Origin: a virus
Lineage: Duplodnaviria > Caudoviricetes
Strand: one strand, 5' to 3'
Length of the DNA stretch: 28,255 bases
Virus record (IMG/VR): IMGVR_UViG_3300035392_000113
Span: 1 to 28,255 of that record
Part shown: one piece after another, positions 2,837-24,972 of the stretch
Layout: the number at the start of each line of letters is the position of its first letter
Position numbering within the stretch: the first letter of the stretch is position 1
Translations under genes and position numbers: made by a program
The notes under the pieces: model-generated
Told to the model about the DNA's origin: nothing
The model's database searches: none
What the model saw: only the letters and a program-made list of their open reading frames with translations

Positions 2837-3616
2837 TTAATCTCCTTTAACAAATAAGCCTGCAATGTTTTTACTAGATGGCCGATGGGGTTTACCCACC
2901 GCTTTACTCTTATGATGTATCGCCCAACAGTCCCAATTCACAAAACAGGTTTCTAAACCGTGTTGGGCGAATATGAGTTCTGTGTTACGACTCCATACAA
3001 CATCTTCGGTGGACGATTTAACCGTTTGGGTATTGTCAGTCCACTCATAATAGAAATAGGGTGGCGTGAGTTTGATGATACGCCCATCTTTAAGGGTGAA
3101 CCCTGTAAAAATTCTCATATCAATCGCCACTAATCCTGTTGCTAAAGCCGCTACAGGCTGTATCCCCACTAAATCTATCGATTCCTCTCGCTCATATTTC
3201 TTGAGTTGATAATTGGGATTGGGGTCGTTTGTCTGCATTGCCCCCCAACGAAAAACCATTACTTCCTCTAAAGGCGGTGCGCTACAATATGGGACGGCAA
3301 TTACTGTCGGGGCTTCGTCCCACCGTTCTAACATAAAATTCAGTGAACTTTCCCAAAATGTTACTTTTGGGTTAATGATGTCAGCCCCCATATCATCATC
3401 AGTCATAATTAAAATATCGATACCGTTCTGAATTGCCGTCTGTACCGCCCGATTACGACTCATAGTAATCGGGGTGTCAGCAATGTAATAACTCCCTAAC
3501 GACGCTATCCTTCGGTCATTAGCACAAACTAACTCCATTTCAGCCGCCCACCGACTTACGTCAGGATGGTCGCCTTTCATTGGAAAATGAGCCTTCATTA
3601 CTTTTAATTTATTCAT
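2837..3616 (-). CDS. GT-A fold (GT2-like) glycosyltransferase
   Basis: ITMSRNRAV...ILIMTDDDM (RN and DxD motifs), TGLVAID, TEDVVWS (catalytic ED), C-terminal AIHHK. ATG at 3616 (the track start 3625 is TTG). Confidence 0.8.
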   Translation of the reverse strand: MNKLKVMKAHFPMKGDHPDVSRWAAEMELVCANDRRIASLGSYYIADTPITMSRNRAVQTAIQNGIDILIMTDDDMGADIINPKVTFWESSLNFMLERWDEAPTVIAVPYCSAPPLEEVMVFRWGAMQTNDPNPNYQLKKYEREESIDLVGIQPVAALATGLVAIDMRIFTGFTLKDGRIIKLTPPYFYYEWTDNTQTVKSSTEDVVWSRNTELIFAQHGLETCFVNWDCWAIHHKSKAVGKPHRPSSKNIAGLFVKGD

Positions 3617-7140: not shown

Positions 7141-9525
7141 CTACGCAGTAATTTTGAAATAGCTGACTTTCTCAGGAACGGGGGCAGCGATAGCATTGTA
7201 CTCTACCACAAACCATTCTTGACTATCAATTAACAACCCTTGAGCGTCTCGCTTCATTTGAGGCCCCTTAAGTTGCATTGGTTTGAACACGGAGTACAAA
7301 ACCGCTTCCCGATTACCGACTAAGCCGTAACTGTCCGCCACTAAAGGACTTTGGAACACCTCAAGACCTTTGAAACGACCCACATTTCCTTCGGGAGTTA
7401 AAAAGCCATCTGCCCTCATACCCGCCGCAGTAAATGACGGTGAATTGGATAAACGGTCACAGTTTGATAAACTCAGTAACAAAAAGTCGGGCTTGTAAAA
7501 TCTATCACCCACCAAAGTTTTCGCCGTCCCAATCAAGTTAGTCAACGCCACTAAATCACCCACACCACTATTCCACGAACCTGCATTGTTGTTACGAACA
7601 GATAAAGCGGCACTCGTTGCTTCGGCAAATAACGCCCCATCAATCTTATTACGAATATCTAACACCAATGCCTCTAAGGTTCGTTTCAAGATATTATCAT
7701 TTGCTAACGCTTGAGTGAACAGGATTGATTCGTCTGTGAGTAACGTTGCTAATCGGACGGCAGTGGCGGTCATTGTAATCGGGGTTTGGGTTAAACCCGC
7801 CCCTTGAATACCCATACCCTCACCCTGTCTAATCGCCTCATAAACGTAATCTATCGCTAATACATCAGTGGGGACAATATCTCCCCCTGTAACGGCCATA
7901 ATTGTCCCATCGGTATATTTCACGATGTAATCATCGCCTTCAATTAAGGTGGTTACACCTTTTGTTACGACCACACTACCAAATGTAATTTGTGCGCCCA
8001 CTAATTTTACAGGTTTTTCTAAGGATACGATGGTTACGGCTTCATTAATGATAGTGACGGTTTTACCTGTATCACCTTTGAAATAACTGTAATAACGTCT
8101 TTCAATGGGGGCGGACATCATATCGGTAGCGAACATTCCCGTTGCAATCAAATCAGGGACGGCTTGAGCGATAACGCCTATCATCAATGAGTACGGTAAA
8201 TTCAAGTCAGCCGTTGTAACGGTATCGCTAAAGCGTTGATATTCGTTAATCAAGTTTCGCTTAATCTCACTGTTATTTAGAGCGTGGTCAAGATAACGGG
8301 CAGCAAAGGCTTCGTTGGCATTTTTCGGTTTGGTCATTTCCCATCGTTTACCGACAGAGGTGCGTTGCATACGGTCAATGAGTAACGTGGCGGGGCGCAT
8401 AAATTCAGGGTGTCCTGTTTCGTTCTCAAATACGGAACTAACGGCGATTTGACTTTTAACAACCGCCCCTTGATTGACTTTTGCGGTATCAACCATCACT
8501 TTCTCGAACATCTTGATTTGATTGACTACTAAAGCGGTTGCTTGTTCGGGACTGACGGGATTTAGAGTAAATACAGAATCTCTGATACCTTGTTTGGTTA
8601 CGACCTCAAATTTAGTTTTGTTTAACTCTAAATCAATCGCCTTGTTGATAGCATCGGTCAATTTGATTTTATCCGCTTCCGCCGCCTTTCTTTTATGGTC
8701 AGTTAATGAACTGAGTAAATCATCCGTCTCACTTAACCCTAAAGCGTCACGTAATGCTTTTTGTTCCTGCGCCACAATAGAGGCAATTTTTTGTTGATGT
8801 GCCTCTTGTTCTCTGCGGATTGCCTCTTGTTCGGCATCAGCAATTCTTTGAGCCGCATCTTGTTCTCTGCGGATTGCCTCTTGTTGCGCCTCATACTCTG
8901 CTACGATTTTATTGTATAAAGCGGGCATTTTAGTTTGAATACTCTCAACGTTATCATCAACAGGAGTTTGTACAGTTGTCATAATTTGTTTACTCTCCAA
9001 AGTTTGTACCCGCCCGTTGGCATCGGCGGGATTAAGTACGAAATCAAAACCTTCTAAATGCAATTCAGTCACTTGATAAGCAATATCGTTCATCATATCG
9101 ATGGGTTCTACCACCCCATACGCTCTCATTGAAATTCCTACCCGCAAACCCATCGCTATAAGATTCTCAATTTGTTTCCCTTTGTCGGGTGATAGTAACC
9201 CCGCCAATTCTACAATGTTGCCATTTAACGCAATACTCGTCCAATTAACGGCAACGTCCTCTAATTCTGCCTCATACTCAGGGTGGTCAATTTGTCCTGT
9301 CAATGAACCACCCGCCGCAAATTTGGCAATCATCTCGTCAATTGCGGCACGTAATACGGGTGTTGGATAAATACGCCGATTGGCATTGATGGTGTTTCCC
9401 GTAGTCCCAATTCCTGTAATGCGGCGTGGAGTAAGACCATTCCCTGCGGCATCTTTAAGTTTGGGCGAATCGACATTGAGCTTAACGCCATCTAGCGGCT
9501 CAATTATTTTTATAAGTTGTCCCAT
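7141..9525 (-). CDS. Fused prohead protease - scaffold - major capsid protein
   Basis: N-terminus has T4 gp21-type protease motifs (NANRRIYP, GQIDHP, GISMRAYG, FDFVLNPA); middle is coiled coil; C-terminus has HK97-fold capsid features (GRFKGLEVFQS). Start placed at 9525 because ATG 9549 lies inside an upstream hairpin. Confidence 0.88.
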   Translation of the reverse strand: MGQLIKIIEPLDGVKLNVDSPKLKDAAGNGLTPRRITGIGTTGNTINANRRIYPTPVLRAAIDEMIAKFAAGGSLTGQIDHPEYEAELEDVAVNWTSIALNGNIVELAGLLSPDKGKQIENLIAMGLRVGISMRAYGVVEPIDMMNDIAYQVTELHLEGFDFVLNPADANGRVQTLESKQIMTTVQTPVDDNVESIQTKMPALYNKIVAEYEAQQEAIRREQDAAQRIADAEQEAIRREQEAHQQKIASIVAQEQKALRDALGLSETDDLLSSLTDHKRKAAEADKIKLTDAINKAIDLELNKTKFEVVTKQGIRDSVFTLNPVSPEQATALVVNQIKMFEKVMVDTAKVNQGAVVKSQIAVSSVFENETGHPEFMRPATLLIDRMQRTSVGKRWEMTKPKNANEAFAARYLDHALNNSEIKRNLINEYQRFSDTVTTADLNLPYSLMIGVIAQAVPDLIATGMFATDMMSAPIERRYYSYFKGDTGKTVTIINEAVTIVSLEKPVKLVGAQITFGSVVVTKGVTTLIEGDDYIVKYTDGTIMAVTGGDIVPTDVLAIDYVYEAIRQGEGMGIQGAGLTQTPITMTATAVRLATLLTDESILFTQALANDNILKRTLEALVLDIRNKIDGALFAEATSAALSVRNNNAGSWNSGVGDLVALTNLIGTAKTLVGDRFYKPDFLLLSLSNCDRLSNSPSFTAAGMRADGFLTPEGNVGRFKGLEVFQSPLVADSYGLVGNREAVLYSVFKPMQLKGPQMKRDAQGLLIDSQEWFVVEYNAIAAPVPEKVSYFKITA
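8804..8885. repeat. 28-bp exact direct repeat in the scaffold region
   Basis: TCTTGTTCTCTGCGGATTGCCTCTTGTT at 8804-8831 and 8858-8885 (54-nt period, QEAIRREQ twice). Confidence 0.9.
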
Positions 9526-9534
9526 AATGTTACC

Positions 9535-9578
9535 AAAAAAAACGGGCATAGATTGAAGTAATTCACGCTATGCCCGTT
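9535..9578 (-). terminator. Terminator-like hairpin immediately upstream of the capsid gene
   Basis: Minus strand AACGGGCATAG-N16-CTATGCCCGTT running into a T8 tract. Confidence 0.65.
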
Positions 9579-9642: not shown

Positions 9643-9861
9643 TCACAAAATCCTTTTAAGTTCTTTACATTTTCCCCTCAATTCTTTCAAAGTCAAATCT
9701 CCACGAATGGAATTATTTAGAATCCAATCGTAAATGATTGTTTCATCGTGGGTCATTCGGATATACCCTTGCTTTTTTAATTCAGGGTCAATGACTTTAA
9801 TAATATGGATTAACAATCGTCTTACGGTAATCCATACTTGAGGGCTTGTACTATCGTTCAT
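9643..9861 (-). CDS. Hypothetical protein
   Basis: 72-aa ORF overlapping the portal stop (ATGA). Confidence 0.65.
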   Translation of the reverse strand: MNDSTSPQVWITVRRLLIHIIKVIDPELKKQGYIRMTHDETIIYDWILNNSIRGDLTLKELRGKCKELKRIL

Positions 9862-11042
9862 TGTGTAACCGTATCTTTTGCTCCCAATAGACCCTGTAAG
9901 ATAATGGCATTAACCATTTCTTCATCATTGAACTTGATTTCGAGGGTTAAGTGAGGCGGCCATAAATTTTTAGCTAATAGTTGTTTTTCTATGAGTGGAG
10001 TGATTAAACTGTCAATGACCCATCTCCGTCCTGCCCTGACACGCATATAATACTGAGTGAGTTTGAACGGTAATCCACTATCAGATAAACTACCGCCTCC
10101 AGGCAGATAATCAAATAACACTGTCGGCGCAGGACTTGCCGCTAACATCGCCCTAACGTGCAACTCCACGTCATCTAACGCCCCAATACCACCCCCCGTA
10201 TTTAAGACCTCTACTCCCGCCCCCGCCCCACCTGTTACAAAATACTGCGCCACTGCCTCATAAGGATTTTCGATTGACATTTGATTTAAGGATTGATATT
10301 CTTGAATTTCTTGTAACGAATATCCTGTTAAGTGGTGAACCAATGTTTTTTGAGCGTAAAATAGGCGGTTCATTGAAACATTTTGTTCAGCACGTCCTAA
10401 TTTCTCAGCGGCATCAATTGCTGCCGCAAACGTAGGAGTACCATACCGACTTTTTTTTAAGTGATTATTACGAAGGTGTATCATTTGCCATAAAGGAAAC
10501 CATACCACTTCGGAGTCTTTGGGGGTATCGCCGTAATAATTATCGCTATAAAAGAACATTTTGGCGGGGTCGTAGGGAACGTCATTATCGTTGGTGTGAC
10601 GGTACATATACAGTTGGGCTTTTGAGGATAAGGCAACTATATCGCCTTCGCTGTTATAAGATACTTCGAGAAATACGTCACCATTTACGAAACAGTCTAT
10701 TAAAGGGATATTTAACTCACTGTTGAGATTTAAGCGTTTAATCATATCATCAATGATTTGTTGAGCCTTCTCTTTATTCTCACTCAAGACCGCATCCGTC
10801 ACCGTTACCGTAAATCCCGTCCCCATCAAATCTGACGCATACATCTGTATCGGCTCTGCCACTCTCGCATCACGAGCATATAACTCCCGACAAGACCGTA
10901 TGGTCGTTATCCGATTTCTAATCTCCCTGTCCTGTAACAAGCCTTTAGACATCTTATTTTGCGGTAAGTCTAACGTTGATGTTACATCTTGTTTGGTATA
11001 ATATTTCTTAAATAGATTGGCTAATGATTGGAGTATACCCAT
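9858..11042 (-). CDS. Portal protein
   Basis: FVNGDVFLE, MIHLR...RYGTP motifs, about 394 aa, upstream of head genes; ATG 11042 lies 7 nt after a TATAAT (11055-11050). Confidence 0.88.
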   Translation of the reverse strand: MGILQSLANLFKKYYTKQDVTSTLDLPQNKMSKGLLQDREIRNRITTIRSCRELYARDARVAEPIQMYASDLMGTGFTVTVTDAVLSENKEKAQQIIDDMIKRLNLNSELNIPLIDCFVNGDVFLEVSYNSEGDIVALSSKAQLYMYRHTNDNDVPYDPAKMFFYSDNYYGDTPKDSEVVWFPLWQMIHLRNNHLKKSRYGTPTFAAAIDAAEKLGRAEQNVSMNRLFYAQKTLVHHLTGYSLQEIQEYQSLNQMSIENPYEAVAQYFVTGGAGAGVEVLNTGGGIGALDDVELHVRAMLAASPAPTVLFDYLPGGGSLSDSGLPFKLTQYYMRVRAGRRWVIDSLITPLIEKQLLAKNLWPPHLTLEIKFNDEEMVNAIILQGLLGAKDTVTQ

Positions 11043-11094
11043 AAATAGCATTATACTCAGTAATTCTAATTTCAGCCAATAATGTAATACAAAT

Positions 11095-11869: not shown

Positions 11870-12142
11870 ATGGCATTTAACTCATATCGTAAGGCTTATA
11901 ATTACAATTTGGTGAAGGCAACCCCATTAACTCAGTTAATGGGTTATGAGGTGGGATTAACAATATATCAAGAAATTGTGGGTGAGGTGTTGCGATTAGT
12001 GAGAGGTAACGTATTTGTACAAAGTGATGAAATCGGTAAAAAAGTGAAACGGGAAATGGTTCGCTTTGAACAATATCTAATTACTCAACTCACTATAAAT
12101 GCAGAATATGAATTTATGACCACTTATGAGATTAGGTATTGA
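11870..12142 (+). CDS. Hypothetical protein
   Basis: 90 aa, GAGGT RBS, own promoter. Confidence 0.75.
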   Translation: MAFNSYRKAYNYNLVKATPLTQLMGYEVGLTIYQEIVGEVLRLVRGNVFVQSDEIGKKVKREMVRFEQYLITQLTINAEYEFMTTYEIRY

Positions 12143-12167: not shown

Positions 12168-12172
12168 GATTT

Positions 12173-12278
12173 ATGATAGTAAGCGAGTAACTTCGTTGAG
12201 GGTTAAGGCTAATAACCGCCTCGCAGTAATGACGAGTAACTTCGTTGAGGACAGGGCTAAGAACCACCTTACTATCAT
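12173..12278 (+). ncRNA. Putative structured small RNA with two repeated domains
   Basis: Closed by an 11-bp stem ATGATAGTAAG/CTTACTATCAT that starts at the predicted TSS; contains CGAGTAACTTCGTTGAGG twice (12184-12201, 12233-12250). Confidence 0.6.
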
Positions 12279-12281
12279 TAA

Positions 12282-13706: not shown

Positions 13707-15164
13707 TTAATTAAAGATGGGTTTAGGATGATATTTTGAAACAATCACTTGAATGATGGGTTTGGGTGTTGGTTCGTGGGCGGCGGCTAATGCTAATGCC
13801 CACGCCCAAAATTTATCGGCGTGATGTTTCTCAGTTTTATTGGTGTCAAACACTAAATTTTTACTTGCTGTAACAATGCGTTTAATGGAGTTGATTTGAT
13901 AAGCTAATTCACGGTCTGTCGGTAGTGGCGTTTTATGTTGAGAAATGAGCATTTTGGCGTTTGTTGCCCATAAAGCCTTACTTGCATTTGAGAACAATAC
14001 CCCTTCGGCCTTGTAAGGGAACGCCTTCCCTAATTTCTCCGCTAAATTCATGCCTAATCCGTTTCTATCAATAAAGAGTTTAACGATAGGTAACTTAGAA
14101 AGGGCATAACTTACAATGTCATATTGGTCATCAAAATCAACGTTGTCTAAACTAATCATTAACCGTAATGGATATGAGCTATCAACGGTTAAACCAATAA
14201 GAAAGAGTTCAGTCGTATTACGAGTTCGTCCAATGTCAAGACCTGCGGCAAAACTAATTTCTAAATGGTTTTTTAATAATTCGTCAATCGCCTCATACGC
14301 CGCAGTGGTATTTTTGTTAACGCAATCGGCTTTGAAACAAATGAGGTTATCGCTTGAAACGGTTCTAATCTCAGTAAATGAAATGAGACTTGTGGATTTA
14401 TCGGTGAACGAACATTCAAATTCTTGTTGAAATGATTCAATCGCCACATTTTGAAAAATTGACTTTAAGCGGTCATTACCAAATCTCTCAACTCTTTCAT
14501 CGGTGGGTAGAGTATGAGCAATTTTAATCGCCTCTTTCACATTGAGGCACATTCCAAACGTATGCCACCACGGGGTCTCTTTGCGTGAATACCCTGAGTA
14601 AGGTTGCAGTGTCTCAGTGAAGATTTCCCAAAACACCCCACTTGCCCCAAAAGGACTTGACCCAATGCGAACCCGTCCCCCCTTAGAAACAACAGGTAAT
14701 GACGCAGTGTAAATATCAAGGTCACTCTGAACGTGAGCAAATTCGTCAAGGTAAACGTTAAAGCGAGCTTTACCACGAGGGGCTTTAGACGGCAGACTTA
14801 TCAATCTAGCCCCATTGTCATACTCTAACCCTAATTGATTATTCACCACCAATTGCGGTAAACCCGATAACCGTAATCTCAAGTTATTCTCAATTTGACG
14901 AGCGTAACGGATTTTTTCAATCGCTTCGTTGTAATTGATAGACACAAAGAAACTTGACTGACCTTCTAAGAACGCATCGGCAACAGCTTCCGCCGATGCG
15001 GTGAAACTCCACGATACTTGACGGGATTTATTTTCAATTCTGAATTTTCCATCGTAACAGAAATGTTCAATTTGAAAATGTTCCCATCGTGCCGTCTCAA
15101 CTCCCGAAGCGGCGGGTAAATCTAAATTGTCTAACAAAAATTGCGCCCGTTTAGTCAATTTCAT
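13707..15164 (-). CDS. terL: Terminase large subunit (Mu gp28-like type)
   Basis: KSRQVSWS Walker A, VYLDEFAH Walker B, SSPFG coupling motif, FQQEFEC, GLDIGR and HADKFWA nuclease motifs. Confidence 0.95.
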   Translation of the reverse strand: MKLTKRAQFLLDNLDLPAASGVETARWEHFQIEHFCYDGKFRIENKSRQVSWSFTASAEAVADAFLEGQSSFFVSINYNEAIEKIRYARQIENNLRLRLSGLPQLVVNNQLGLEYDNGARLISLPSKAPRGKARFNVYLDEFAHVQSDLDIYTASLPVVSKGGRVRIGSSPFGASGVFWEIFTETLQPYSGYSRKETPWWHTFGMCLNVKEAIKIAHTLPTDERVERFGNDRLKSIFQNVAIESFQQEFECSFTDKSTSLISFTEIRTVSSDNLICFKADCVNKNTTAAYEAIDELLKNHLEISFAAGLDIGRTRNTTELFLIGLTVDSSYPLRLMISLDNVDFDDQYDIVSYALSKLPIVKLFIDRNGLGMNLAEKLGKAFPYKAEGVLFSNASKALWATNAKMLISQHKTPLPTDRELAYQINSIKRIVTASKNLVFDTNKTEKHHADKFWAWALALAAAHEPTPKPIIQVIVSKYHPKPIFN

Positions 15165-15573
15165 CAAATATCGTTAACGCCTCTTTCACTTGTAATGCCG
15201 CTTTATTTTGTCGTTCTGTCCATTCACTGAGACTCATTGTGACAACTTCAACGGGTTTGGTGTTCTCAAGTTCTAATTTTTCATTATAGCCCCGATTACG
15301 ACCAATGGTTTTGAGCATAAACGTAATCGCCCATGGTTGACCTTTCTGAACCGCAGCGATTAAATTTAACTCTGCTACGTCCAATACCTGTCCTCTCGCC
15401 GCATCGACTATTGCCTGTGCTTCAGGGTAATCTCTCAAGTAATGAAACATTGTGACGTGAGAGATTTTGAGATTTTTGGCCGCTAAATACACCCCACCAC
15501 GACAACGCTCTAATTCAGCGAGTATTACAGGTAATGGAATTTTCTTTTTTCGATTGCGTTTTTTCTTTTCCAT
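15151..15573 (-). CDS. terS: Terminase small subunit (HTH)
   Basis: HTH (GVYLAAKNLKISHVTMFHY), WAITFMLKTIGRNRGY motif, overlaps terL; start MEKKK at 15573 just after a promoter. Confidence 0.8.
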   Translation of the reverse strand: MEKKKRNRKKKIPLPVILAELERCRGGVYLAAKNLKISHVTMFHYLRDYPEAQAIVDAARGQVLDVAELNLIAAVQKGQPWAITFMLKTIGRNRGYNEKLELENTKPVEVVTMSLSEWTERQNKAALQVKEALTIFDEID

Positions 15574-17205: not shown

Positions 17206-17209
17206 CTAG

Positions 17210-17379
17210 TGGAGATGGCGGGTATCGAACCCGCGTACTACAGTCCTCACTAACTCATTCGCTGTAAACCATTAACCCTTCGCAAAACGGTTAATTTACC
17301 TTGAATAGTAGTCGCTATCGTGTTGCTGTGCGCCTTCGTGATAGCCTCTTAGACCGTAGGCGAAAACCATTTCATCCCC
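17210..17379 (-). ncRNA. Miniature tmRNA-like RNA (170 nt)
   Basis: 5' GGGGATG-AAATGGTTTTCGC-CTACGGTC ... GACTGTAG-TAC-GCGGG-TTCGATA-CCCGC-CATCTCC-A: acceptor stem with G3:U pair, stemless D loop, P2-like helix, T arm. Confidence 0.8.
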
Positions 17380-18868: not shown

Positions 18869-19052
18869 CAATACTCCGTTTAACTTTAATTTTATGGGGC
18901 GATTATGATACCGTACTCCACGCCGATTCCAAAATCGGAATGAAACATTTCATCAAAAACCACCCACCCAAACTATTCGATTTTTGGGAAATATAATCAT
19001 CGTTATACCATAGTAATAACCTTAAAGTTTGATGAAAATAGGATTTACCCTA

Positions 19053-19081
19053 TTGACAAATACCAATAACTATGGTATAAT
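19053..19081 (+). promoter_or_regulatory. Consensus promoter heading the non-coding region
   Basis: TTGACA (19053-19058), 17 bp, TG-extended TATAAT (19076-19081); near-copy of the promoter at 832-878. Confidence 0.9.
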
Positions 19082-19196
19082 GGTATACATAAGAGAGTAA
19101 GTCAAACAGGAAGTGAGACGTATGAGCCACTACTGATTGAGGGTAGAGACCAAACTACCGTAAACAAAGAGCAAGTTGATAAACTACTCACTCATT

Positions 19197-19288
19197 GAAT
19201 AAACAAGAATAGACCTGAGCAACGTCACGAAAAGGCTTACCGAATGAGAATAAACAAGAATAGACCTGAGCAACGTCACGAAAAGGCT
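19197..19288 (+). repeat. 41-bp exact direct repeat, two copies
   Basis: GAATAAACAAGAATAGACCTGAGCAACGTCACGAAAAGGCT at 19197-19237 and 19248-19288. Confidence 0.95.
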
Positions 19289-19298
19289 CACTCAAGAA

Positions 19299-19433
19299 CT
19301 AAGGGGCGGCACTCTTAGAAAGACCTTAAGGGCAGTTTAGACTTTAAGGCACAAGACCTCAGAGGCGGCACTTTGAGGCAGAACAATACCCTTAGCGGCA
19401 TAAGGGTCAAAGACCAACGGGCGGCACTGTTGG
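19299..19433 (+). repeat. Array of five hairpins, four with a GCGGCA loop
   Basis: Hairpins at 19299-19318, 19324-19349, 19357-19378, 19388-19407 and 19414-19433. Confidence 0.9.
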
Positions 19434-19738
19434 CAATTAACAATAGCATATCGGTGCGATAGAGGGGATTAAGAGGTCGGTAACTCTCTCCCGCTAATGG
19501 AGCGATTTCATCAGGGCGCAGGATTTAATAGAGTTAGCGGGAGTAATAAAGTCCCGCTAACTCACTCAAGAATATGGTGGGTCATTTAATAAGCTGAGGT
19601 ACGCTTCGGTGAGGCAAGATGATTGACGGTACTTAGTTTCGATTTGTTGATGACTAAGGCAGAATCAATAATGGTGGTTCGAATCCATTCCCCGCTTGAC
19701 TAACATTTACACCTTAAACGGTTTACGATATAATTAAC

Positions 19739-20047
19739 GACTTAACAATCTAGTAACAATTAGTGATAGGATAATTGTGAAGTTGTTGTTAAGTCAGCTA
19801 ACATATTATTTTGATAACGGTTAAAAGAGAAATTATGTACGGGTGATGGGACTCTTCACAAACAGGGGGATATAGCGAACCCTTGAGATAACCGAAGGCA
19901 GAAACGGACTTCACTCATAGTATAAAAAGGCTAGAATAATTCTCCATTTGCTACGACCTCTATGTGCGAATAATGATGATTAGCATTTAATGACTTAATA
20001 ATCTAGTAAACGTAACTGATAGATTACGGCGAAGTTGTTGTTAAGTC
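19739..20047 (+). repeat. Duplicated ~57-nt hairpin module
   Basis: GACTTAAYAATCTAGTAA...TGATAG...GAAGTTGTTGTTAAGTC at 19739-19795 and 19992-20047. Confidence 0.9.
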
Positions 20048-20232
20048 ACTCACGAAACAACCTTTAACGAAAGTATAATTTTTCATCAGGTACATTACGG
20101 TAAGACCCATAACCGTACAGTTATAGTGGCGGGGGCATTAAGATGACATAATACCGTAATATAGTATACAAAGCTAGAATGATGAAAAATGGGCATCAAT
20201 ACCTCTTAAAATCAAAGGTCGTTAAGTGAAAC

Positions 20233-20261
20233 AACACCCTACTCAACTGAGTAGGGTGTTT
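20233..20261. terminator. Terminator hairpin between the ncRNA region and the convergent operon
   Basis: AACACCCTACTC-aact-GAGTAGGGTGTT-T. Confidence 0.7.
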
Positions 20262-24003: not shown

Positions 24004-24972
24004 ATGAGAATAATGATATTGGTAAAAAATGAATTGATATATGCTGATGGGTGGATGTTAGCGGGTGACACTTTAACAGTGGCTTTTGCTGAACATTGGG
24101 ATAATGGGGGTTATAATCCTCATAAAGAGTATGAATTAAGGTTACAGGGGGTATCAAACGGTGACAAAATTTATGGGGACGGTAAGGGGATTGCAGCGAA
24201 GTTTGTGGCTGATGAACCTTACGTGTGGTCAGGGTATGAGCGTCCTCAATTCTTGAGTATTGGGAATCCGTATCTACCCGCTAAAGAGGTAGAGTTAGTT
24301 ATTCCCCCTGATGACAGTGAGGGTAAACGGCCTTTAGGGTACGTTGATTTTTACGATATTCTTACAACGTACCTAACCTCTCAAAAACCATATAGTTTCA
24401 TTTACGAGTTTCCTGAGAGTGAGCGAGAAAAAATATCAAATGTTATCTCGTGTTATAACCGATACACCCATTTAGCTTACCAACTGACTACAAACTTTCA
24501 ATACTCCCCTAACTTCTCGTGGCCTGATGCGTATATCGCCCCACTATACGGAGTGTTACATCGTTGTCATAAAAATACCCTTTATAACACTATCAGTTCA
24601 ATAAAAAACATTGTTAAATTTAATGATGTTGTCATTGGACGGGTAAAGGAAATACTCAAAGAAATTCACTTTGTTACAGGCGATTTAGATGTCGTTTGCA
24701 TTGATAAAAAGCGAGTTTTAGAATTTGGCGGATTATTAGCTCTCAGTAATTTTCTAAAAGGTTATGACATAGACGCTGAATTTCTTAACTCATTCGTACT
24801 CAGTGTTGGGAGTGTTAAAATCTATAACATACCGATACAGGTTAGAAACAAAGAGAAAGAACTTGTTGAAAGTCGCTCAAAATTTGAGTACGTCATCAAT
24901 TATAACACTCAAATTATTGTCTTAACTGATTTGAGCGATGTATTACAACAATTAAGACAGTGGGGGTATTGA
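24004..24972 (+). CDS. Hypothetical protein
   Basis: 322-aa ORF with own promoter; no family recognised. Confidence 0.85.
   Translation: MRIMILVKNELIYADGWMLAGDTLTVAFAEHWDNGGYNPHKEYELRLQGVSNGDKIYGDGKGIAAKFVADEPYVWSGYERPQFLSIGNPYLPAKEVELVIPPDDSEGKRPLGYVDFYDILTTYLTSQKPYSFIYEFPESEREKISNVISCYNRYTHLAYQLTTNFQYSPNFSWPDAYIAPLYGVLHRCHKNTLYNTISSIKNIVKFNDVVIGRVKEILKEIHFVTGDLDVVCIDKKRVLEFGGLLALSNFLKGYDIDAEFLNSFVLSVGSVKIYNIPIQVRNKEKELVESRSKFEYVINYNTQIIVLTDLSDVLQQLRQWGY

Follow-up and report, generated by a model that had tools for sequence, protein, structure and literature searches.

A gene-free gap in the genome of a tailed phage holds five closely spaced hairpins, four of which present the same GCGGCA hexaloop on stems of different sequence, and this raises the question of what such an array does for the phage that carries it. 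An earlier note had proposed that it is a multivalent decoy for a host RNA-binding protein or defence nuclease, built like the CsrB/RsmY sponges and differing from them in specificity. Here we consider the structure of the array, its conservation in a related phage, the longer element to which it belongs and its likeness to known systems, and we weigh the decoy proposal against other explanations as the evidence on each of them is given.

Genomic setting of the array

The window, by which we mean the whole stretch of 28,255 nt that was analysed, is a fragment of a tailed-phage genome, a linear virus contig with a CheckV completeness estimate of 14%. It encodes a tail tube protein (1892-2488), a portal-like protein (9858-11051), a terminase (13707-15167) and, on the minus strand, a protease-capsid (7141-9549); this last product is an 802-residue fusion of a head protease with a capsid-like part, and had three relatives among 8000 scored candidates. 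The array lies in a gap of 1.37 kb (18872-20242) that has no ORF of 50 codons. Its left neighbours are a nuclease and two ParB-like genes, and its right neighbours a dCTP deaminase and a helicase loader. The sequencing runs that hold the array region are microbial-mat metagenomes, all of them DNA.

The host assignment is tentative. Five of at least 120 terminase relatives carry an organism name, at 55-59% identity; two are Chloroflexota, two belong to a phylum that we take to be Acidobacteriota and one is a gammaproteobacterium. The 3′ end of a tmRNA-like gene in the window aligns closely with the tmRNA of the genomes G004 and G006, whose records name Chloroflexota groups, in a comparison restricted to the phylum Chloroflexota. 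The phylum of G004 was used as a working host only, and it is the basis of the 41-genome tallies given below. The dCTP deaminase was also tried as a host clue and proved uninformative, showing 55-61% identity to many phyla among the matches listed. The tmRNA-like gene is about 173 nt long, has its own promoter and occurs on the minus strand of both the window (17207-17379) and the related phage L121 (5704-5880); it keeps a tRNA-like domain with G3.U70, has 89 nt where the model has 290, and is possibly a decoy for SmpB or trans-translation.

Structure and strand of the hairpins

All five hairpins were present as the earlier note had written them, at 19299-19433 on the plus strand. H1 (19299-19318), H4 (19388-19407) and H5 (19414-19433) have stems of 7 bp and H3 (19357-19378) has a stem of 8 bp, each of the four capped by GCGGCA, while H2 (19324-19349) is a variant with an 8 bp stem and a 10-nt loop, which can alternatively be folded as a GGCA bulge below a 2 bp cap. 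The linkers from H1 to H5 measure 5, 7, 9 and 6 nt and are A-rich, with the AAGA that had been described as usual in them found in three of the four, and the GCGGCA copies are spaced 26-59 nt apart. That four different stems of 7-8 bp carry one and the same hexaloop was borne out and is not expected by chance: two or more stems of at least 7 bp sharing a hexaloop within 200 nt were seen in none of 1000 dinucleotide shuffles of the gap and in none of 60 shuffles of the whole window, against four observed.

The linker word CTCACTCA was considered as an RNA-specific signal and ruled out, as it ranks with the most frequent 8-mers of both strands across the genome; it is absent from three more distant relatives. 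It is related to TCACTCAA/TTGAGTGA, the commonest 8-mer on both strands (19 copies in the window and 28 in the L121 contig), which is possibly a genome-wide DNA signal.

The plus strand had been named as the functional one from the G:U pairs. This call holds, since the plus strand folds better than its shuffles (z -3.27; 0/200 as stable) and the minus strand does not (z -0.28; 75/200 as stable). In longer transcripts of both phages the loops are predicted to be unpaired at 0.92-1.0. The only plus-strand ORFs that overlap the array have 24 and 29 codons and 1-base indels separate it from its counterpart in L121, so the array is not coding; nor is it a leader, because the next substantial plus-strand gene lies only at 24004, and between the array and that position there is neither a plus-strand terminator call nor a plus-strand gene. 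An element that acts as DNA, whether as a single-strand origin, a cruciform or a recombination signal, would be in keeping with the retention of some hairpins when the plus strand is folded as DNA. However, the G:T pairs found in four of the five stems become A:C on the other strand, and the array is flanked by two consensus promoters and surrounded by tRNA-like and pseudoknot modules; we regard a DNA role as extremely unlikely.

Conservation of loops and stems in a related phage

A terminase search returned 78 loci, and the array was found in two of them. One, L122, shares 99.7% identity with the window; the other, L121, is a distinct phage whose terminase is 85% identical. Seven sequencing runs that were compared contained the window type and the L121 type only, and a search with the ParB-like gene likewise gave the same two phages as its only matches. 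The five flanking genes shared with L121 are identical at 209 of 377 four-fold sites (55%).

Against this background all 24 loop bases of the four GCGGCA hairpins are identical in the two phages, so that the loop is conserved in a homologue, as the earlier note had asked to be checked, while the stems covary. Seven of the 28 aligned stem pairs have changed (six on both sides, one from G-U to A-U), none is broken and one pair is cleanly lost; an alternative count, which leaves out the misaligned top of H3, gives five double changes. H1 differs by two double changes, H3 by a closing G-C that became A-U and by the lost pair, H5 by three double changes and the G-U to A-U replacement, and H4 is identical; the stem of H2 is identical as well, with apical bases that differ and one base gained. 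Counted by base, 13/56 stem positions have changed versus 0/24 loop positions (Fisher p 0.008, which is overstated because paired changes are not independent). Aligning the seven distinct hairpins, which are related copies and not seven independent trials, gave 49/49 paired cells and double changes at all seven pairs, and the six loop columns were the only invariant ones. When the array of L121 is folded in isolation H2 can mis-pair with H5, and the stem probability of H5 is 0.38 alone and 0.88 in the longer transcript. The comparison comprises two lineages only.

The hairpins are thus real, and selection has conserved their structure in a phage region devoid of genes; the pattern of substitution indicates that selection acts on the sequence of the loop and on the shape of the stem, not on the sequence of the stem. 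Two explanations of the loop by base pairing bear on this result. If the loops kissed each other through four G-C pairs around a G.G mismatch, oligomerising the RNA or forming a ligand pocket, their invariance would be explained, since self-pairing loops cannot drift singly, and two copies of the loop, taken as a free duplex, do pair at -7.5 kcal/mol. Nevertheless, the strain in the loops is left out of this energy, the terminal A takes no part in the pairing and is still invariant, H2 with its variant loop does not conform, and the complement of the loop is absent elsewhere in either transcript, and we hold kissing to be quite unlikely. The loops could instead act as antisense seeds and pair with UGCCGC in RNAs of the phage or the host; in the window, the capsid, portal, terminase and ParB-like genes have six such copies on their sense strand. 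Yet all six are 98-1937 nt inside coding regions, and the nine sites found outside the array on both strands are not striking when 4.7 would be expected in the window as a whole. A closed stem with a 6-nt loop makes a poor seed and the stems are not conserved, and an antisense role therefore appears highly improbable.

The array within a longer modular element

The region is preceded by P1, a plus-strand sigma-70 promoter with an extended -10 (19053..19081), which matches the consensus at 12/12 positions with TG in the window and at 12/12 in L121, and whose start site is predicted at about 19087-19088. Near-identical strong sigma-70 promoters occur in the window at 841, 11751, 13174, 19053 and 26098, some of them opposing structural genes. 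A second plus-strand sigma-70 promoter, P2 (19706..19734), matches at 11/12 positions in the window and in L121, and P1 and P2 have the same orientation in both phages.

Between P1 and P2 the two phages share a 5′ block, a pseudoknot, the array, a further structured block and a tRNA-like element, all on the plus strand. The 5′ block (19102..19159) is a bulged stem followed by a small hairpin and has the same predicted fold and a near-identical alignment in both. An H-type pseudoknot, of a motif widespread in phages, is present twice in the window (copy 1, 19212..19239, recognised as repeat D2 and by a pattern match; copy 2, 19263..19290), owing to a 51-nt tandem duplication specific to the window lineage. 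Downstream of the array, a conserved structured block ends in a 12 bp hairpin (19446..19563; inverted repeat I17) whose sequence has been replaced in L121 and is still paired. The tRNA-like element (19576..19697) has initiator-tRNA-like acceptor and T arms and a long hairpin in place of the anticodon loop; compared with L121, its 26 consensus pairs show no broken pair, one double and one single change. Its 3′ 23 nt are 96% like the ends of tRNA-Met(CAT), and ARAGORN makes no call. In the window it has an added hairpin inside the D-loop region. Names such as T-arm, D-loop and H-type pseudoknot are used here in their general sense and were not assigned by a database call.

Beyond P2 follow two diverged plus-strand units of about 250 nt (19734..20236; repeats D3, D6 and I1, and a four-copy alignment), each opening with a long internal-loop hairpin (19739-19795 and 19991-20047) in which the internal loop and a GATAG apical motif are conserved; among 17 scan matches, a fold matching this unit occurred in the two phages only. 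The gap ends in a terminator-like hairpin (20233..20260) called on the minus strand, and the hairpin there in L121 has its T-run on the RNA strand.

The array placed by the earlier note at 19294..19435 is present, but the element to which it belongs is larger and also comprises pseudoknots, a tRNA-like element and, in L121, free T-arms; the span given in the note covers one block of it. The array is likely to be the repeated, protein-binding part of a longer non-coding RNA that is predicted to start from P1. Whole modules differ between the two phages: L121 has four free T-arm hairpins and extra blocks, which the window lacks, and the window has the 51-nt pseudoknot duplication. The gap of neither phage matches any Rfam family beyond terminator-like chance hits.

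The pseudoknot motif has a wide distribution of its own. Its pattern matches about 130 viral contigs with a near-invariant core, and in 119 of the 120 loci listed (L439-L558) an upstream GAC, outside the search pattern, completes stem 1. The next, flanking pair of stem 1 is Watson-Crick in 33 of 57 variants versus 16.1 expected, i.e., it covaries. By eye, the motif stands before small genes and among tRNA genes, in a single copy in most other phages; in cultured phages it gave weak blastn matches, and there was no Rfam match in 20 loci.

The four free T-arm hairpins of L121 lie at 3015-3385 on the minus strand, two of them followed by CCA, with a putative pseudoknot, seen by eye, ahead. Also on the minus strand, L121 has two tandem tRNA-shaped genes (13977-14130) with a purine-rich tetraloop as the anticodon loop; they are absent from the window, where a tRNA-Leu and then a truncated tRNA-Tyr stand at that place. 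A conserved structured leader precedes the tRNA-Leu in the window (12172-12280), with a duplicated inner module within a long stem and a likeness to rRNA not above that of shuffles.

Alternatively, the hairpins could be stand-alone mimics of the tRNA D-loop beside free T-arms, a tRNA in parts for tRNA-directed nucleases or modifying enzymes, or a mimic of the D-loop/T-loop elbow. In 15 of 62 tRNAs of G004 and G006 the GG-centred D-loop hexamer ends in GGCA; nine of the 62, including two of the four tRNA-Met(CAT), are within one mismatch of GCGGCA, although none has it exactly, and the exact hexamer occurs in two of 32 phage tRNAs. GGCA is also found at the D-loop position in the phage tRNA-Leu, in the two anticodon-less tRNAs of L121 and in the tRNA-like element, and L121 has four T-arm and four GCGGCA hairpins. 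On the other hand, the rank of GCGGCA under a D-loop profile (35/4096) is mostly due to GG, as it is the 35th of 256 hexamers having GG. A 6-nt loop closed by a pair is unlike a D-loop, the hairpins are free, with no cloverleaf and no tRNA call by ARAGORN or Rfam there, one T-arm loop of L121 is without the C needed for docking, and the window, which has no free T-arms, keeps its four hairpins. We consider D-loop mimicry unlikely, and the likeness a weak clue to the identity of the binder.

Likeness to known RNA systems

CsrB and RsmZ carry several GGA stem-loops (PMC4894983), and the array resembles CsrB/CsrC and RsmX/Y/Z in that short hairpins share a loop motif on variable stems with single-stranded linkers, under their own promoter and with no downstream gene, although the transcript of the array is a predicted one. 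It differs in that the loop has GGC, not GGA, in that all six loop bases are fixed and in being phage-encoded among unrelated modules. GGA is absent from the array of either phage, which excludes the array as a CsrB/RsmY member; there was also no match to a CsrB/Rsm family in Rfam. CsrA was found in 6/41 genomes of the tentative host phylum (5/40 without the unpublished genome G044, on which none of the conclusions depends). The array may still act in the manner of CsrB/RsmZ.

RNA decoys in phages have precedents, to which the array bears a partial likeness. The pseudo-ToxI repeats of phage PhiTE are one (PMC3475682), and like these and other type III antitoxins the element consists of phage non-coding repeats with changing copy number; the 51-nt spacing of the duplicated window pseudoknot is near the 50-nt repeat length of TenpI (PMC12373285). 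Unlike them, the GCGGCA units are plain hairpins, the pseudoknot is single in most other phages and no cognate toxin is known. The tandem pseudoknots of 34-50 nt described for type III antitoxins are not a trait of the hairpins; the upstream pseudoknot forms a tandem of 51 nt, in the window only, and no Rfam antitoxin model matched. The Racr RNA anti-CRISPRs are a second precedent (PMC10651486), comparable in that these small phage RNAs have a promoter of their own and could act as mimics, titrating proteins of the host; the array, however, has no Rfam CRISPR repeat match and no repeat-like clusters among the hairpin-model matches, and its conservation is in the loop, not in the stem. The abiF motif RNA RCd22 shows that repeated hairpins can neutralise a nuclease (PMC12373285), and there, too, stem shape outweighs stem sequence, but the array has no RF03085 match and no abi gene downstream. 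Tandem small pseudoknots recall the STAXI RNA (RF01728), whose own are found in mobile elements (PMC2864571); the STAXI model gave no hit with an E value of 10 or less.

The array could also sequester a host antiterminator of the ANTAR type, whose binding sites are paired hexaloop hairpins. ANTAR targets are described as hexaloop pairs with a linker of 5-12 nt and conserved A1 and G4 (PMC3369931, PMC8934654, PMC8164766), and the search in PMC8164766 allowed single variants. The array has tandem hexaloops with G at position 4 in all eight loops of the two phages and linkers of 5-9 nt, within the range given in PMC3369931 (9 and 6 nt between H3, H4 and H5), and ANTAR domains occur in 21/41 genomes of G004's phylum (20/40 without G044). 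However, loop position 1 is G in all eight loops instead of the conserved A, and G1 and C5 could close a pseudo-triloop by a putative pairing of the kind that A1 has been suggested to prevent (PMC8934654). ANTAR sites fix two loop positions and not six; the stems of the array are longer, its units number four or five, and neither an overlapping terminator or ribosome site nor a downstream gene is present, and we find an ANTAR target very unlikely.

Searches for further arrays and for host counterparts

Pattern scans of viral contigs (9, 4, 5 and 38 of 64 parts) gave, after the hairpin filter, the two known phages only among the matches listed, and of the 17 matches of an 18-base metagenome scan two were real, both identical to the two known phages. 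Matches by blastn to cultured phages and plasmids were promoter-only or due to chance. A model of the hairpins (R1) found nothing above 19 bits in 79 sources besides the eight known hairpins, and two weak matches in 50 pseudoknot-bearing records out of at least 120 loci. The restriction of the array to two lineages holds for the parts scanned and the matches listed, and its rarity there does not amount to absence elsewhere. The literature, of which most subscription papers and supplements lay outside the scope, yielded no description of the loop, the pseudoknot or the phage cassette (PMC13692257 and PMC12409349 were without bearing), and the motif lists of large RNA screens could hold the pseudoknot or the array. 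With respect to the families compared, the GCGGCA array is uncatalogued, and it is under selection on its loop.

On the host side, the region 19088-19700 was compared by blastn with 401 genomes of G004's phylum, which returned seven tRNA-type 3′ ends (six called tRNA-Met) and one likely chance match. In 41 genomes of that phylum, including the unpublished G044 and with up to 150 candidates scored per genome, the hairpin model gave 39 scattered matches, of which the 25 inspected had no shared context; there were no CRISPR-repeat-like clusters among the model matches. The rRNA operon of G004 and the tmRNA and RNase P RNA of G004-G006 contained no natural counterpart of the hairpins. Mimicry of rRNA was also considered and rejected, as no module aligns to the rRNA operon, tmRNA or RNase P RNA of G004 better than 30 shuffles, the exception being the tmRNA-like gene to tmRNA.

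The confinement of the array to one phage lineage and the lack of a host counterpart in these searches would suit loops bound by a protein that the phage encodes, or by a factor that processes or stabilises the long transcript by cutting or protecting its modules, with the array as a scaffold. Such a binder could be missing from the contig, since the contig is only part of a genome. An RNA-binding domain was seen in none of the 43 window proteins, though, the hairpins are clustered and do not lie between modules, and operator-like copies at start codons of the window and L121 were not convincing, the nearest being one weak AT-only stem at 11870. For the same reason we rejected a model of operator plus decoy, and we judge a phage-protein site improbable.

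Interpretation

The explanation that we prefer, at slightly less than an even chance, is that the array acts as a multivalent decoy whose target is a single RNA-binding protein or nuclease of the host. A long RNA would be transcribed from P1 early in infection; the stem would be only a scaffold and the loop would be read by the protein, four-fold repetition would give avidity or capacity, and the target would be a host factor and not a phage factor. The other modules, namely the pseudoknot, the T-arms and the tRNA-like element, may serve other targets likewise. Selection on stem shape together with loop sequence points to a protein that reads a displayed loop; four copies 26-59 nt apart, a strong promoter and the lack of a downstream gene fit titration; and neighbouring compact mimic-like modules that come and go fit host-phage conflict. 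It is the selection pattern, copy number, promoter and module turnover taken together that favour the decoy.

The architecture is sponge-like, as first described, whereas a binding partner, a host target hairpin or an operator copy was not found in these searches, for which reason "decoy" is still an inference. Its main weakness is that the RNA which a decoy imitates would be expected in the host, and no such original came to light in the searched genomes; the search was possibly made in the wrong phylum, and covered up to 150 candidates per genome. Invariance of the loop is, moreover, also expected from self-kissing loops or phage-protein sites.

A wider reading, possible although rather doubtful, is that the region is a modular decoy cassette, in which one promoter would drive exchangeable mimic blocks with a different target for each, be it a host RNA-binding protein or a tRNA-directed defence nuclease, and with gains and losses like those of anti-defence genes. 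The pseudo-ToxI and Racr decoys considered here copy one host RNA; in this region several unrelated modules are strung together, close phages differ in which of them they have, and one module presents its fixed hexaloop four times. The pseudoknot, with more than 100 viral contigs and no Rfam match, is a separate lead. If the cassette reading were true, the GCGGCA array would define a new motif of protein-RNA recognition, possibly a D-loop mimic that stands free, and could lead to an RNA-binding protein or defence nuclease not yet characterised, from a host group that has been little studied.
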